Part shown: in pieces, positions 26,086 to 41,811 of the stretch | How the letters are laid out: each line of letters starts with the position of its first letter | Position numbering within the stretch: the first letter of the stretch is position 1 | From: an uncultured Solirubrobacterales bacterium | Lineage (GTDB): Bacteria > Actinomycetota > Thermoleophilia > Solirubrobacterales > 70-9 | Reading direction: 5' to 3' | Assembly: GCA_963770315.1 (NCBI GenBank) | Contig: CAVYPC010000002.1 | Location: 2,227,168-2,291,167, forward strand | DNA length: 64,000 nucleotides | Program-made: the position numbers and the translations under genes | The notes under the pieces: model-generated | Database searches by the model: none | What the model saw: the letters and a program-made list of their open reading frames with translations, nothing else | What the model was told of the DNA's origin: nothing

Positions 26086-26406
26086 CTACAGCCTGATCTC
26101 GATGTCGACGCCCGCCGGCAGCGAGTCGAGCCGCTGCAGTGAGTCGACGGTTTTCGGCGAGGGCTGCAGGATGTCGATCAACCGCTTGTGGGTGCGGATC
26201 TCGAAGTGCTCGCGCGAGTCCTTGTCCTTGAAGGGAGAGCGGATCACGCAGTAGACGTTTTTCTCGGTGGGAAGGGGGACCGGGCCGGAGACGCTGGCGC
26301 CGGTGCGCTCCGCCGTCTCGACGATCTCGCGGGCAGCCCGATCTATGGCGTCGTGGTCGTACGCCTTCAGTCGGATCCGGATTTTTTGTGCCGCGATAGT
26401 CGCCAC
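26086..26406 (-). CDS. rpsJ: 30S ribosomal protein S10
   Basis: 106 aa, GTG start. [26 protein letters not shown]. Confidence 0.97.
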
Positions 26407-26558: not shown

Positions 26559-27743
<1,185 letters not shown>

Positions 27744-27864: not shown

Positions 27865-29976
<2,112 letters not shown>

Positions 29977-30063
29977 GGTCTTAAGGTAAGCGTTGTCTTG
30001 AAGTCGGGACGAGAGAAATCTAAGAAGTCATCGCCTGCCGGCAAGAACCGCCGGGATCGGCGC

Positions 30064-31053
30064 ATGAAAAAGGCCCTCGCGGGCCCGGCGAAACGTACTG
30101 CGAAAAAGAAGCCTGAGCGACGCGCGATGATAGCAGCGACGCGACGGCGCATCGGAAAGATGCCCCGGCAGGCGGGGAAGCGCCTCGGCAACGCCCTCCC
30201 CGGGCTCCTCACCGCGACTCGCAGGGTCGACCGCACGGTCGACCGGCAGCTGCAGCGCGCCTGGCCACCGATCGCCCGCGCCGGTCGATCGGCCCGTGCT
30301 GCCGGCAATCGCCTCGGTCGGCGCCTGCGCCCGGTCGGCGTCGTCCTCTTCCGCGGCCTCGCCCTGCTCGAACGCCATCTGCTGCGTACCGCCGCCTGGG
30401 CGCAGCGAGCGGCGACCCGCGGCAGCGCCGTGCTCACCCCGCAGCGGGCGATCTGCCTGACGATCCTCGGCTCGGCGGGGTGCCTGCTCGCCTCCCAGTT
30501 CGTCGACTACCGGGCGGTCGAGATCGGCCAATCGGGCTATGCGGGCCTGCCGGCCGCGACCCCACCGACCGCCGGCGCCGAGACCGCCGGGCAAGCCCAT
30601 GCCTACCTGCTGATCCCGGTGGCGCTGCTCGCCGCCGCACTGGCCCTCGCCGTGCTGCGCAACGGCCGCCGGCAGGGGCTGGGGCGGATCGTCTTCGTGC
30701 TCGGCCTGCTCAGCCTCGCCGTCATCCTCCTGGTCGACCTGCCGGCCGGGCTGGATGCGGGGGCCCAGGCCTCGCGCTTCTCCGGCGCCAAGGCGGTCCT
30801 CTATGACGACTTTTACGCTCAGATCGCCGCCGCGGCCGGGCTGATGCTGGGCGGCGCGCTGCTCGTTGCAGCCCCGAAAGCGGCGGCCCGCTACCATGCG
30901 CGGCCGTGCCGAACACGAACCAACTCATTCGCAAGGGCCGCAAGCGCCCTAAGAAGAAGACGACGACGCCGGGCCTCAAGTCGGGGCAGGGCAACAAGAA
31001 GAGGGTCGCGGCGCCGCAAAGGCGCGGTGTCTGCACCCGCGTCGCCACGGTAA
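30064..31053 (+). CDS. hypothetical membrane protein (basic N-terminus, about 4 TM helices); 3' end overlaps rpsL out of frame
   Basis: Strong third-position GC from about 30160 to 30890. TM-like segments [58 protein letters not shown] and [17 protein letters not shown]. The start is uncertain: TTG 29998, or ATG 30064, 30127 or 30163. The stop is at 31053, which is 148 nt inside rpsL. Confidence 0.5.
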
Positions 31054-31301
31054 CGCCGAAGAAGCCGAACTCGGCTCTGCGCAAGATCGCCCGCGTGCGC
31101 CTCACCAACGGGATGGAGGTCACCACCTATATCCCCGGCGAGGGCCACAACCTGCAGGAGCACTCGGTGGTGCTGGTGCGCGGCGGCCGGGTCAAGGATC
31201 TGCCGGGCGTCCGCTACAAGGTCGTCCGCGGCACCCTCGACGCCGCCGGCGTCTCCGACCGCAAGCAGGCCCGCTCCCTCTACGGCGTCAAGGCCAGCTG
31301 A
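30906..31301 (+). CDS. rpsL: 30S ribosomal protein S12
   Basis: 131 aa, GTG start. NQLIRKGR...[60 protein letters not shown]. It is on the strand opposite to fusA-tuf. Confidence 0.97.
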
Positions 31302-31305
31302 ATCC

Positions 31306-31776
31306 GTGCCGCGCCGCTCCGCCGCACAGATCCGCCCGGTCGAACCCGACGCCCGCTACCGCAACCGGCTCGTCCAGCAGCTCATCAACAAGGTGATGAG
31401 CGACGGCAAGAAGTCGCTTGCCGAGCGGCTCGTCTACGACGCGCTGGCGATCGTCGGCGAGCGCTCCAACGAGGATCCCGTCGAGACCCTCGAGGCGGCG
31501 ATCAAACAACTTACCCCGGTGCTCGAGGTTCGCTCGCGCCGGGTCGGCGGCGCCACCTACCAGGTGCCGGTCGAGGTCCCCGCCCGCCGCGCCCGCACGC
31601 TTGCGGTCCGCTGGCTGGTCGACTTCGCCCGCAACCGCCGCGAGTACTCGATGTCGGAGCGGCTCGCCAGCGAAATCCTCGACTCGAACCAGCAGCAGGG
31701 CGGGGCCTGGAAGCGCAAGGACGACATCTACCGCATGGCTCAGGCCAATAAGGCCTTTGCGCACTATCGCTGGTAG
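31306..31776 (+). CDS. rpsG: 30S ribosomal protein S7
   Basis: 156 aa. [44 protein letters not shown]. Confidence 0.97.
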
Positions 31777-31789
31777 CTAGCCTGGCTCC

Positions 31790-32266
31790 ATGAGCCGGCC
31801 AATCCTCGCCGTCGACGTCGACGGCGTCATCTCGCTCTTCGGCTTCGACGAGCCGCCGGACCGCAAAGCCGCGCGGTTCGAACTGATCGACGGAATGGTG
31901 CACTGCATCTCGCTGGCCGCCGGAGAGCGGCTGAAGCGGCTGGCCGAGGTCTACGACCTGGTCTGGGCCACCGGCTGGGAGGAAAAAGCCAACGACTACC
32001 TGCCCAACATCCTCGGCCTGCCGGAGCTTCCGCACCTGAGCTTCGACGGCGCCGCCCGCTTCGGCTCGGCGCACTGGAAGCTGGGGCCGTTGGACGAGTA
32101 CGGCAAGGGTCGGCCACTGGCCTGGGTCGACGACAGCTTCGACGAGAGCTGCTACGAGTGGGCGCGGGGTCGGGACGTGCCAACCCTCCTCGTCCCCACC
32201 GAGCCCCAGCTCGGCCTGGAGGAGGTCCAGGTCGAAGCGCTGATCGCCTGGGCCGGCGGGCTCTAA
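31790..32266 (+). CDS. HAD-superfamily hydrolase-like protein
   Basis: 158 aa. Motif I ILAVDVDGVI, with a later WVDDS acidic motif. Confidence 0.6.
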   Translation: MSRPILAVDVDGVISLFGFDEPPDRKAARFELIDGMVHCISLAAGERLKRLAEVYDLVWATGWEEKANDYLPNILGLPELPHLSFDGAARFGSAHWKLGPLDEYGKGRPLAWVDDSFDESCYEWARGRDVPTLLVPTEPQLGLEEVQVEALIAWAGGL

Positions 32267-32303
32267 CCCCACCGCCGGGAAGAGGCTGTCTACACTGCCC
32301 CCG

Positions 32304-32645
32304 ATGGAGGGATTCTGGCCAATCTTCTTCTTGCTGGTCGTCCTGAAGATCCCGGTCTTCGGCGCGCTCTGGCTGGTCTGGTGGGCGAGTAAGGCGCCAG
32401 AGGCGGACGGTGCTGCCGAGGACAACGGCGAGGACTTCAACCGCTGGCGACCGCAGCCGATCCGGCCCCGTGGCCCTCACCACTTGCCCGGAGGCAGTGC
32501 TGTCAGGAGGAGGCGGGGTGCCCCTCCTGGCCGCTGGGTTTTTCGCCGGGAGCCCGGGCTCTCTCGCCGAGCGATCAGGGCGAAAAACAGGACGCCGCTG
32601 GTCAGGAGGGGCACCCCGCCTCCTCCCGTCAAGCCGCCTGCCTAG
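32304..32645 (+). CDS. small hypothetical membrane protein (doubtful)
   Basis: N-terminal TM segment FWPIFFLLVVLKIPVFGALWLVWWA. The 3' third of the ORF, including its stop, is supplied by repeat copy 4. Confidence 0.3.
   Translation: MEGFWPIFFLLVVLKIPVFGALWLVWWASKAPEADGAAEDNGEDFNRWRPQPIRPRGPHHLPGGSAVRRRRGAPPGRWVFRREPGLSRRAIRAKNRTPLVRRGTPPPPVKPPA
32506..32626 (+). repeat. palindromic intergenic element, copy 4 (121 nt, perfect 24-bp outer stem)
   Basis: GGAGGAGGCGGGGTGCCCCTCCTG (32506-32529) is exactly complementary to CAGGAGGGGCACCCCGCCTCCTCC (32603-32626). Core GCTGGGTTTTTCGCC...CTCTCGCCGAG...GGGCGAAAAACAGGACGCCGC. It ends 2 nt before the monooxygenase stop codon. Confidence 0.9.
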
Positions 32646-33951
32646 ATCGCTTTCTCTCGTGGCGGATCTCTCGTATGTACGGGTGGAAGTCAACCTCGAT
32701 CGTGTGACGCTTGGAGCTTACGAAGCGCTTTTTTAGCCAGCGTTCGTAATCGACGATCTCCTCGCGCATCTCGGGTGCCGTGGGTAGAGCTGCCTTATCC
32801 GTGAGCAGGTCGGCTACCCATTCGGACTGGGCCTCAGCCAGCGGCATGATTGGGCCCAGGGGCTGGATGAAGCCGATGAAGTAGAGGCCGGGGTTCTCCG
32901 TGGAGACGACCCGTTTGTATAGCGGCATGCGGTTGTCGCGGGCGGCGAAGACCTTCTCGTCGAGGAAGGGGAATGAGATTTCGTAGCCGGTGCAGTAGAC
33001 GACCAGGTCGATCTCCTCCTCGCTGCCGTCGGCGAAGCGCACGGTGCGGTCGCCGGTAAAGCGGTCGATGCTTGGCTTGGCCGCGATATCGCCGTGGCCG
33101 AGTCGCGGCAGCAGCTCCGAAGAGACGGTGGGATGGGCCTCGAACAGCTTGTGGTCGGGCCTGGGAAGGCCGTAATCGGTCATCTCGCCGATCGACATCT
33201 TCAGCAGTCGCGAAGCGAAGAAACGCTGCACGGTCATCGGCAGGTAGCTCAGCGCCGGCGGCATCGATTCGTCGATCGGCTTGCCACCGAGGAACTTCGG
33301 CAGCACGTAGGCGCCGCGCCGCATCGCGAGGAAGGTCTTCTCGGCGATTCGCGACGCCTCGACCGCGACGTCGACGGCGGAGTTGCCGATTCCCAATACC
33401 AGCACCCGCTTGCCCTCCAGCACGTCGGACTCGCGGTAGTGGTGGACGTGCATCTGCTCGCCCTCGTACTCGTCGGCACCCGGGAAGGGCGGTTCGGGCC
33501 AGCGCGGCTTCCAGTGATGCCCGTTTGCCACCAGGACCGCGCGGTAGCGCTCGGTATGCTGGGTGCCGTCGGCGTCCTCGACGGTCACATCCCAGCCGCC
33601 ATCGACAGGCTCAGCGGCGGCGACCTCGGTACGGAAGACGATCTTCTCGGCGAGGCCGAAGCGCTCGGCATAGTCGTCGAAGTATTTGGCGACCTGGTAG
33701 TGGCTGGGGTAGTCCGGATAGTCCTCCGGCATTGGAAAAGCCTTGTAGGACATGAGCTTGCGGGCACTGTTGATGTGCAGCGACCGATAAGCCGACGAAG
33801 TCCCGTTGTCGTTCTCATAGCGCCAGTTCCCACCGATCATCGACCCCTTCTCGAAGCAGTCGAAAGGGATGCCGCGAGCGGCCAAGACCTGGCAAGCGGT
33901 CAGCCCCGACGAACCAGCTCCTATGATGCAGACCTTCTCCACCTTGGCCAC
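32629..33951 (-). CDS. flavin-containing monooxygenase (class B, FMO/BVMO-like)
   Basis: 440 aa. FAD site IIGAGSSGL, an FMO-type motif around GEQMHVHHY, and NADPH site VLGIGNSAVD. Confidence 0.85.
   Translation of the reverse strand: MAKVEKVCIIGAGSSGLTACQVLAARGIPFDCFEKGSMIGGNWRYENDNGTSSAYRSLHINSARKLMSYKAFPMPEDYPDYPSHYQVAKYFDDYAERFGLAEKIVFRTEVAAAEPVDGGWDVTVEDADGTQHTERYRAVLVANGHHWKPRWPEPPFPGADEYEGEQMHVHHYRESDVLEGKRVLVLGIGNSAVDVAVEASRIAEKTFLAMRRGAYVLPKFLGGKPIDESMPPALSYLPMTVQRFFASRLLKMSIGEMTDYGLPRPDHKLFEAHPTVSSELLPRLGHGDIAAKPSIDRFTGDRTVRFADGSEEEIDLVVYCTGYEISFPFLDEKVFAARDNRMPLYKRVVSTENPGLYFIGFIQPLGPIMPLAEAQSEWVADLLTDKAALPTAPEMREEIVDYERWLKKRFVSSKRHTIEVDFHPYIREIRHERKRSRQAA

Positions 33952-34177: not shown

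Positions 34178-34178
<1 letters not shown>
34072..34178. repeat. palindromic intergenic element, copy 5 (variant core, about 107 nt)
   Basis: GAGGGGGGCGCGGGTGCCCCTTCG and CGAAGGGGCACCCGCGCCCCCTCC form the outer stem (21 nt perfectly complementary). There is an inner CGGAAC/GTTCCG stem, and the apical sequence differs from copies 1-4. It abuts the rpoC stop codon. Confidence 0.75.

Positions 34179-41811
<7,633 letters not shown>

Follow-up and report, generated by a model that had tools for sequence, protein, structure and literature searches.

Gene order at the str locus

The str operon of Escherichia coli (rpsL-rpsG-fusA-tufA) lies between rpoBC and the S10 operon, and the E. coli S7 operator site is located within the rpsL-rpsG intercistronic region. 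The operon forms part of the rpoBC-str-S10-spc-alpha supercluster, the colinearity of which is maintained by selection in the Enterobacteriaceae (PMC6735719). In Salmonella, an inversion mediated by tufA and tufB that breaks the ribosomal supercluster costs ~8% of the growth rate (PMC6735719). Here we describe a locus from an uncultured family of the Solirubrobacterales (Thermoleophilia) in which the rpsL-rpsG unit alone has very probably undergone a single, ancient, in-place inversion of ~0.9 kb, in the ancestor of a clade of several genera.

The window, by which we mean the whole 64,000-nt stretch of DNA analyzed, belongs to a MAG in two contigs. It contains the same four genes as the canonical operon, also between rpoBC and the S10 operon, and all four are found within 26.5-31.8 kb, adjoining rpoBC, in the following setting:

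26086-26406, minus strand: rpsJ
26559-27743, minus strand: tuf
27865-29976, minus strand: fusA (EF-G), upstream of tuf and rpsJ on the same strand
29977-29997: divergent gap of 21 nt with overlapping -10-like boxes on both strands
29998-31053, plus strand: memb, a fast-evolving membrane ORF whose 5' part lies antisense over the fusA control region
30906-31301, plus strand: rpsL, ribosomal protein S12 (131 aa; Pfam S12, 7e-38; NCBIfam rpsL_bact, 202 bits against a cut-off of 113)
31306-31776, plus strand: rpsG, ribosomal protein S7 (156 aa; Pfam S7, 1e-57; rpsG_bact, 206 bits against 136)
31790-32266, plus strand: HAD-like protein with a DVDG motif (HAD; weak Pfam HAD_SAK_2 match, E = 3e-5, 24.8 bits against a cut-off of 27.5)
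32304-32645, plus strand: small membrane ORF (small), of which the first ~40-75 residues are conserved and the remainder crosses the palindromic element
32495-32640: palindromic element of 145 nt between the convergent small ORF and FMO gene
32629-33951, minus strand: flavin-containing monooxygenase (FMO; Pfam FMO-like, 6e-91), between rpoC and the plus-strand genes
34178-38218, minus strand: rpoC
38218-41811, minus strand: rpoB

S12 and S7 are encoded at one locus each across the 2.9-Mb genome, and both score above the curated NCBIfam equivalog cut-offs (TIGR00981 and TIGR01029, respectively), as expected of the housekeeping proteins. The sequence-only reading had reported a split str cluster with rpsL-rpsG inverted relative to fusA-tuf, and gene calls and strands bear this out. 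rpsL and rpsG are on the plus strand and fusA and tuf on the minus strand, rather than in the one-strand order of the classical operon, making co-transcription from a promoter upstream of rpsL impossible. The window also departs from the canonical operon in that rpsL-rpsG is preceded at leaderless distance by a -10 box of its own, and in that a divergently oriented membrane gene, memb, lies between this pair and fusA as the one additional ORF of the interval. With only 4 nt between rpsL and rpsG, an operator comparable to the E. coli S7 site could not be accommodated. The actinobacteria sampled outside the Solirubrobacterales (L058-L063) keep the tight colinear str form.

Family searches with memb, HAD and the small ORF returned a single match, the subthreshold Pfam hit to HAD noted above; memb had no Pfam or NCBIfam match and HAD no NCBIfam or PDB sequence match.

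Extent of the inversion

When the window was aligned by blastn to the colinear locus L036, one segment matched plus/plus, whereas fusA, the membrane ORF and HAD-small matched plus/minus:

30892-31775, plus strand: inverted segment of 884 bp, beginning with the rpsL -10 box and ending at the rpsG stop codon

Comparison by tblastn with six further colinear loci (L125-L130, of which L128, a short contig, informs on the memb side only) agrees that the reversed part is rpsL-rpsG alone. The closest colinear relatives, L125 and L126 (S7 87%), have exactly the gene order of the window, including FMO, save for the orientation of rpsL-rpsG. Their layout is fusA(-) memb(+) memb2(+) rpsG(-) rpsL(-) HAD(+) small(+) FMO(-), and FMO occupies the same place in L125-L127 and L130, indicating that it predates the inversion.

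These alignments bear directly on the suggestion in the sequence-only reading that the five-gene plus-strand block had been inverted as a unit, with a palindromic element at its right edge. An inversion of this whole block (memb, rpsL, rpsG, HAD and small; ~2.6 kb) is hinted at by the codirectional, tightly packed arrangement of the five ORFs and by the element at the right end of the block. It predicts, however, that colinear relatives have HAD-small beside fusA and memb beside rpoC, and the opposite is seen. In L036 and L125-L130, memb and HAD-small are already oriented as in the window relative to fusA and rpoC, that is, on the plus strand in all colinear relatives, where HAD lies antisense and upstream of rpsL. 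The palindromic element (fold of -110 kcal/mol, z = -6.4) occurs at the same site in many members of the inverted clade and is missing from L036. It marks the convergent small ORF/FMO junction rather than a breakpoint, the reversed DNA being only 30892-31775. Inversion of the whole block is thus refuted by the L036 blastn and L125-L130 tblastn comparisons, and we give it next to no credence.

Nor did the inversion deprive fusA of its usual upstream genes, as had been supposed. The colinear family relatives examined already have one or two antisense membrane genes and a separate fusA promoter and leader in the rpsG-fusA interval, and across the Solirubrobacterales rpsG and fusA are commonly 0.3-4.6 kb apart.

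We predict that the ancestral layout was that of the closest colinear relatives, with tuf preceding fusA and rpoC following FMO, all four on the minus strand in window orientation. One breakpoint would fall where the -10 boxes of HAD and rpsL stand back to back, within the 10-18 nt that separate them, and the other immediately past the rpsG stop codon, leaving both promoters and both genes intact. After the flip, memb, memb2 where present, rpsL, rpsG, HAD and small would share one direction. The breakpoints are delimited by the loss of alignable similarity, and the junctions may have been trimmed by later deletions. Terminal inverted repeats pairing the segment ends were found neither in the window nor in the colinear L036, and no other recombination scars were seen in L036. 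In an attempt to fix the right breakpoint, the memb2-rpsL spacer of the inverted genome G157 was compared with the rpsG-memb2 spacers of colinear loci, and these were too diverged to align.

Phylogenetic distribution

In the genus of the window, rpsG is divergent from fusA in all 20 genomes that have both genes on one contig. Across the family as a whole, the inverted state is seen in 14 genomes from 11 genera, each with an S7 at least 88% identical to that of the window, and ~45 genomes of ~40 other genera are colinear, as are all 12 informative genomes of other families (rpsG and fusA codirectional). Altogether the inverted layout is present in ~35 independent assemblies, from the genus of the window and members of 10 sister genera. 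The compared genomes are all MAGs with no isolates among them, many of them long-read assemblies in one or a few contigs. In an S12+S7 tree of 60 rows, the inverted state forms one clade (support 100/99) requiring one change, sister to the colinear L036. Orientation is fixed and tracks phylogeny in ~95 informative genomes.

Misorientation of the 0.9-kb segment or of the whole block by the assembler might be suspected in a two-contig MAG. The sequence-only reading had proposed a comparison of synteny with related genomes, and this has now been made. The ~35 independently assembled genomes of 11 genera, at least seven of them single-contig, share the orientation and the junctions; sequences at the junctions are conserved, their divergence keeping pace with that of the genes on either side. 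An assembly artefact is effectively refuted, and its residual probability is negligible. The same reading held that the arrangement would be less novel were it the norm of a whole clade; it is the fixed norm of one comprising at least 11 genera, and its novelty is lowered by that measure.

The tree also speaks to the origin of the segment. Loss of the native rpsL-rpsG and insertion of a horizontally acquired cassette in the opposite orientation would account for the inverted segment being exactly a self-sufficient unit of promoter plus genes, as expected of something transferable. This is very improbable given that S12+S7 of the clade are sister to the colinear L036 of the same family and fall inside the Solirubrobacterales, that the family itself has this -10 box at this spacing, and that no mobility genes or repeats flank the segment. 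A reversible, phase-variable segment caught in one orientation is suggested by the shortness of the segment and by the promoters at its bounds. We regard it as exceedingly improbable, as orientation follows phylogeny perfectly (a single change on the tree), flanking inverted repeats were looked for and not found, there is no recombinase-sized ORF between fusA and the FMO gene, and the genes keep their own promoter either way, meaning that a flip would switch nothing. The combination of end repeats and both orientations among relatives or populations that marks a site-specific invertible switch was not found. A single ancestral inversion of rpsL-rpsG remains the preferred reading by far, and the inversion is a real, inherited gene-order variant of uncultured soil actinobacteria, neither an assembly error nor a new kind of system.

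Putative promoters of rpsL and HAD

Among the Actinomycetota, leaderless transcription units have been described for Mycobacterium. We know of no mapped transcription start sites in the Solirubrobacterales. Like the actinobacterial leaderless units, rpsL, fusA and HAD of the window have TANNNT 6-10 nt before the start codon with no Shine-Dalgarno sequence (rpsL, TACCAT, 8 nt, GTG; fusA, TACCTT, 6 nt, ATG; HAD, TAGCCT, 6 nt, ATG), the likeness to Mycobacterium being one of sequence. Two of these boxes border the inverted genes:

30892-30897, plus strand: TACCAT, -10-like box 8 nt before the rpsL GTG, a putative promoter of leaderless type
31778-31783, plus strand: TAGCCT, -10-like box 6 nt before the HAD ATG and 1 nt past the rpsG stop

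The spacing is widespread in the genome, TANNNT being found before the starts of long ORFs 168, 165, 100, 106 and 47 times at distances of 6-10 nt against a background of ~20, with the offset of 6 the commonest class. The 25 listed loci of the inverted clade have TA[CG][CTG]AT followed by 8 nt and GTG at rpsL, and all other Solirubrobacterales loci have cTGCTAnnnT 8-10 nt before the rpsL start. A -10 box and 8-10 nt, lacking a Shine-Dalgarno sequence, precede the rpsL start codon across the order, whereas actinobacteria outside the Solirubrobacterales have purine-rich, Shine-Dalgarno-like rpsL leaders and lack the box. In colinear relatives, the equivalent HAD box (TAGGCT, TACGCT, TAAGCT or TACCCT) stands back to back with the rpsL box at a spacing of 10-18 nt (three measured).

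From these conserved signals we infer that the Solirubrobacterales rpsL-rpsG is an autonomous unit whose own -10 box apparently drives a leaderless or near-leaderless mRNA. The flip was probably tolerable because rpsL-rpsG is self-contained with its leaderless-type promoter, and because fusA-tuf had long been uncoupled by antisense genes and has its own promoter and leader.

The fusA control region

Every Solirubrobacterales locus examined has its own fusA promoter-like box and leader, and the parts of this order-wide leader are a promoter, a hairpin, a six-codon uORF and an intrinsic-terminator-like hairpin. Four elements were located in the window:

29982-29987, plus strand: TAAGGT, -10-like box 10 nt before the TTG at 29998
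29983-29988, minus strand: TACCTT, -10-like box 6 nt before the fusA ATG
30067-30086, minus strand: hairpin GGCCC-GCGA-GGGCC followed by T5, intrinsic-terminator-like in a terminator scan, 90 nt before the fusA ATG
30127-30135, minus strand: TGCTATCAT, extended -10-like box and putative distal fusA promoter P1, which derives from the leader common to the order

Like the order-wide leader, the window has an extended -10 box TGCTAnnnT upstream of fusA and a GC hairpin with a T-run 30-90 nt before the ATG. At the position of P1, TGCTAnnnT is present in 18/18 outgroup leaders, and GCTGCTATCATCGCGCGTCGCTCAGGC is kept with a few substitutions at most in inverted and colinear family members. Each of the 20 other loci examined has a similar GC hairpin and T-run 30-90 nt before fusA, that of L047 being imperfect. 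Within the inverted clade this terminator-like hairpin varies in the loop alone and its stem is invariant; across the order the stem shows a few compensatory changes. A consensus fold of the fusA leaders recovered the terminator hairpin alone, and Rfam gave no relevant match to the region or to an outgroup fusA leader. A candidate antiterminator pairing (CCGGGC/GCCCGG) did not hold consistently across families, and no such pairing could be established.

Unlike the order-wide leader, of which the window keeps the promoter box and terminator hairpin, the inverted clade is missing the uORF and ~110 nt flanking it. Neither the window nor any inverted-clade locus read has the six-codon uORF (ATG GAG/GAT ... 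stop) between promoter and terminator, and the strict uORF pattern is found in 0/4 genomes of the window's genus versus 85/201 in the order. In 19 of the 21 listed inverted-clade loci (the exceptions being L015 and L035), TACCTT precedes the fusA ATG by 6-8 nt; at this position L132 has TACCTT, L133 TACCCT and colinear relatives TACGCn. We predict that the branch on which the flip occurred also saw the deletion of the uORF-bearing central part of the fusA leader and the origin of the leaderless-type -10 box 6 nt before the fusA ATG.

The 21 nt (29977-29997) that had been counted between fusA and the first possible divergent start, TTG 29998, are correct, as is the A-richness ascribed to 29977-30160 (28% A versus 14.5% for the whole window). 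The further claim that the fusA promoter must lie inside or antisense to the divergent ORF holds in part. The control-like TGCTATCAT and the hairpin with its T5 are indeed antisense within the ORF, but TACCTT lies in the gap at leaderless distance, and the fusA promoter need not lie wholly inside the ORF.

The membrane genes

The protein encoded by memb is 46-75% identical across the clade and 36-39% identical to that of L036. Its 3' end overlaps rpsL by 148 nt, an overlap attributable to loss of the downstream memb2 and of the original memb 3' end. Colinear relatives have memb2, as does the inverted genome G157 (L132), but the genome of the window does not. G157, inverted yet keeping memb2, is the predicted intermediate; memb2 would have been lost later, in the lineage of the window, after which memb would abut the rpsL promoter.

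Indels in memb are all in frame and its start position is conserved (TTG, ATG or GTG, then Lys). These two features rule out, as the whole story, that the first ~45 memb codons are wholly noncoding antisense of fusA signals. The strongest nucleotide-level constraint at the memb 5' end, an invariant stem with a variable loop, points to the antisense elements.

Replication orientation

dnaA is located ~350 kb away and 61-66% of genes are on the strand fitting its position, a geometry shared by six single-contig inverted genomes and one colinear genome. GC skew is weak and noisy and cannot define replichores, for which reason replication direction was taken from the dnaA position and gene-strand bias. 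On this basis, the flip puts the sole S12 and S7 genes head-on to replication, the rest of the ribosomal supercluster being codirectional.

Implications

Like the inversions and insertions, fixed or made experimentally, that break the supercluster in other lineages (the Salmonella tuf inversion among them), the rearrangement described here separates translation-gene operons that are normally colinear. Supercluster breaks elsewhere are large and arise by recombination between tuf copies, whereas this flip spans 0.9 kb and one cassette and has no end repeat. Unlike Salmonella-type inversions, it has been stably inherited across at least 11 genera.

A more elaborate and rather doubtful reading links the flip to further rewiring events on one branch, and the clade would then be a naturally occurring deletion mutant of an elongation-factor attenuator not previously described. 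The deleted six-codon-uORF module would be a candidate translation-status sensor setting EF-G and EF-Tu transcription, its control being replaced by a leaderless promoter at the fusA ATG. The retained promoter and terminator would yield a ~50-nt RNA antisense to the extended 5' end of memb, and S12 and S7 would be read head-on to replication in a codirectional string with four accessory genes. If this were true, the promoter and terminator that were retained would together constitute a working gene for a small antisense RNA.

The simple inversion, which we favor, involves no new mechanism, and its value is as a well-resolved example of gene-order change. Its history explains why memb runs 148 nt into rpsL and why memb has a conserved, A-rich "N-terminus". 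For studies of the order-wide fusA leader, the family offers a natural comparison between uORF present and uORF deleted. For this uncultured clade, the inverted orientation is a clear-cut synapomorphy.

The supercluster is among the most conserved bacterial gene orders, its colinearity being under measurable selection in fast growers (PMC6735719). The present case shows a route to breaking this rule: with a self-contained rpsL-rpsG and a separately promoted fusA-tuf, a cassette-precise flip is fixable, and it persists across at least 11 genera despite placing two essential, highly expressed genes head-on to replication.

Organization of the str Region

Published work describes the canonical str operon, the supercluster it belongs to and the fitness cost of disturbed colinearity in Salmonella (PMC6735719). 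A sequence-only reading of the window had claimed a split layout, with rpsL-rpsG opposite in strand to fusA-tuf, and this is borne out by the ORF map and family searches.

Genes of the str region (ORF map and family searches; ORF map for the two membrane ORFs)
26086-26406, minus: rpsJ
26559-27743, minus: tuf
27865-29976, minus: fusA
from TTG 29998, plus: membrane ORF (memb), 302 codons
30906-31301, plus: rpsL
31306-31776, plus: rpsG
31790-32266, plus: HAD-like ORF (HAD)
from 32304, plus: small membrane ORF
32629-33951, minus: flavin monooxygenase gene (FMO)
34178-38218, minus: rpoC
38218-41811, minus: rpoB

The products of rpsL and rpsG, S12 and S7, score above the NCBI bacterial equivalog cut-offs and are present in one copy each in the 2.9-Mb genome. 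The earlier observation is confirmed, including the 21-nt gap between fusA and the divergent ORF, the A-richness of 29977-30160 (28% A vs. 14.5% in the window) and a palindromic element near the small ORF (32495-32640); its interpretation is right in part. Outside the window, its genome encodes a second EF-G paralogue (G000:C2:1304604-1306640; 44% identity to fusA), which most relatives also have.

A Single Clade Carries the Inverted State

Among named records, the closest are MAGs of uncultured Solirubrobacterales or Thermoleophilia, many of them long-read soil assemblies. Within the window's genus, rpsG diverges from fusA in all 20 genomes that carry the two genes on a single contig, and the two are co-directional in all 12 informative genomes from the other five sampled families of the order, often 0.8-4.6 kb apart (16 kb in one case). 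A family-wide sample contained the inverted state in 14 genomes from 11 genera, in all of which S7 shares at least 88% identity with that of the window, and the colinear state in ∼45 genomes from ∼40 other genera. On a maximum-likelihood tree of S12 and S7 from 60 loci, all 25 inverted loci form one clade (100/99, one change), with a colinear family member (L036) as sister. Because the inverted state is shared so widely and falls in one clade, misassembly is very unlikely; a reversible switch is likewise very improbable given a single change on the tree, as is xenologous replacement of the two genes, given that the sister is the family's own colinear L036. Full-text searches found no publication on an rpsL-rpsG flip or a leaderless rpsL in Solirubrobacterales.

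Extent of the Inversion and Order of Events

Window proteins were placed onto related loci by tblastn. In colinear relatives, memb is antisense and lies between rpsG and fusA, and the HAD-small pair, also antisense, stands between rpoC and rpsL. In window orientation, the gene order of the closest colinear genomes (L125 and L126; S7 87%) is tuf< fusA< memb> memb2> <rpsG <rpsL HAD> small> <FMO. It differs from that of the window in the direction of rpsL-rpsG and in the additional membrane gene memb2. Since memb2 is still present, between memb and rpsL, in the inverted genome G157, the flip preceded the loss of memb2 in the window's lineage.

In a DNA alignment to L036, the stretch 30892-31775 alone is reversed relative to its flanks, its first base being the start of the rpsL -10 box and its end the rpsG stop codon. 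Since HAD and rpsL have their -10-like boxes back to back in colinear relatives, 10-18 nt apart in the three measured, one breakpoint must, as judged from these motifs, fall inside their spacer. The HAD -10-like box in the window starts 1 nt past the rpsG stop. Terminal repeats were sought at the inverted segment and none were found.

The palindromic element had been placed at the right edge of the inverted block, a position that did not hold: it sits ∼0.7 kb away from the closer breakpoint, where the small ORF and the FMO gene converge, and L036 lacks it. It folds as a long hairpin, has the same position in many clade members and is unnecessary for explaining the inversion. Different clade members have palindromic (MITE-like) hairpin elements inserted at intergenic sites of this gene cluster; at loci L004, L005, L014, L015, and L019 one sits between rpsG and HAD and would separate the two transcriptionally.

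An Apparently Self-Contained rpsL-rpsG Cassette

Leaders of the attenuator type have been described for rpsL and, in streptococci, for fusA (PMC2965389). Across Solirubrobacterales, rpsL lacks a preceding Shine-Dalgarno sequence, and a conserved box (cTGCTAnnnT or TAnnnT) stands 8-10 nt 5' of its start codon, whereas rpsL leaders of actinobacteria outside the order are purine-rich and Shine-Dalgarno-like, without the -10-type box. We counted, genome-wide and at each offset, the TANNNT hexamers that precede the start codon (ATG or GTG) of a long ORF with high GC3.

Genome-wide TANNNT counts by offset to the start codon
6 nt: 168
7 nt: 165
8 nt: 100
9 nt: 106
10 nt: 47
other offsets: ∼20 each

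The hexamer is thus enriched ∼2- to 8-fold over background 6-10 nt before long-ORF starts (roughly 490 excess sites), and leaderless-type promoters and transcription therefore seem pervasive in this genome. Here as throughout, what we say of transcription draws on sequence motifs and conservation: rpsL-rpsG resembles a self-contained cassette that carried its own promoter along.

A Shortened fusA Leader

At all Solirubrobacterales loci examined, fusA is preceded by an extended -10 box and by a GC hairpin with a T-run, whichever gene stands further upstream. It would appear that fusA-tuf was independent of rpsL-rpsG before the flip, which may have been tolerated on this account and in that rpsL-rpsG brings its own promoter.

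An order-wide fusA leader, read at the colinear loci L036-L056 and L113-L130, runs from TGCTAnnnT through a 5' hairpin, a six-codon uORF, ∼40 nt and a hairpin with T-run to fusA. The uORF reads ATG GAG/GAT through to a variable stop (TAG/TAA/TGA), encoding peptides such as METSSR and MDSRST, and the terminal hairpin (GGGCCC-loop-GGGCCC plus T5-8) lies 30-90 nt before the fusA ATG. A strict uORF-terminator pattern matches exactly once per genome in 85 of 201 Solirubrobacterales genomes, compared with ∼6 matches in total for the reversed control, and in none of four genomes of the window's genus. No antiterminator was established in this leader, Rfam gave no match, and full-text searches found no publication on a uORF leader of fusA.

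The inverted clade keeps the promoter box (30127-30135, minus) and the hairpin with T5 (30067-30086, minus), a remnant spanning 30067-30135 on the minus strand of the window, without the ∼110 nt between them that held the 5' hairpin and uORF. Six nucleotides 5' of the fusA ATG, TACGCn has become TACCTT, at the offset of the commonest leaderless class genome-wide, and a proximal promoter with its -10 box within the 21-nt gap is a plausible prediction. The fusA promoter had been expected inside or antisense to the divergent ORF; this stands for the older conserved signals, which run antisense inside memb, but not for the plausible proximal box.

Consequences for Neighboring Genes

The stretch 29977-30160 is A-rich because the antisense of the fusA hairpin and promoter box is conserved there, as reflected in its conserved “...RRAMIAA” translation; the hairpin stem is invariant across the inverted clade and the loop alone varies. 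The fast-evolving memb appears to be translated across this stretch, since all indels there are in frame and the start position (TTG, ATG, or GTG, then Lys) is kept 10-12 nt after a TAAGGT box. Inverted-clade genomes have a memb 5' end that is ∼45-55 codons longer and covers the fusA promoter box and hairpin in antisense (29998-30160, plus); in colinear relatives memb begins with an ATG 4-8 nt outside the TGCTATCAT box. Should the old fusA promoter still fire, it would yield a ∼50-nt RNA antisense to memb. Because memb2 and the original 3' end of memb were lost after the inversion, the memb reading frame now continues across the rpsL promoter and overlaps rpsL, out of frame, for 148 nt (30906-31053) until the first stop inside that gene.

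The position of dnaA, ∼350 kb from the locus, and a gene-strand bias of 61-66%, with switches at about 1.2 Mb and 2.6-2.7 Mb, make minus the leading strand here, and thus the sole S12 and S7 genes are head-on to replication. The dnaA/locus geometry is alike in six single-contig inverted genomes, and in colinear G074 all the genes share the direction of replication. Equal weak Bac_DnaA scores (24.9 bits) occur outside the window at G000:C2:594955, 626623, 1286704, and 2091369, in open frames of 257 aa that are probably copies of one insertion-sequence AAA+ helper gene. By a crude ORF filter, ∼1.5-1.6 Mb of G000:C2, also outside the window, has only six coding-like long ORFs in this 100-kb bin vs. 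∼40-65 in most other bins, and could be masked sequence, of atypical composition or noncoding.

HAD, which starts 13 nt past rpsG with its own -10-like box, has probably lost the promoter context it formerly shared with rpsL. The inversion is ancient, cassette-precise and clade-defining, and it took place in a lineage with an already modular str region. It amounts to an instructive variation on a kind of event already known, not to a new system.
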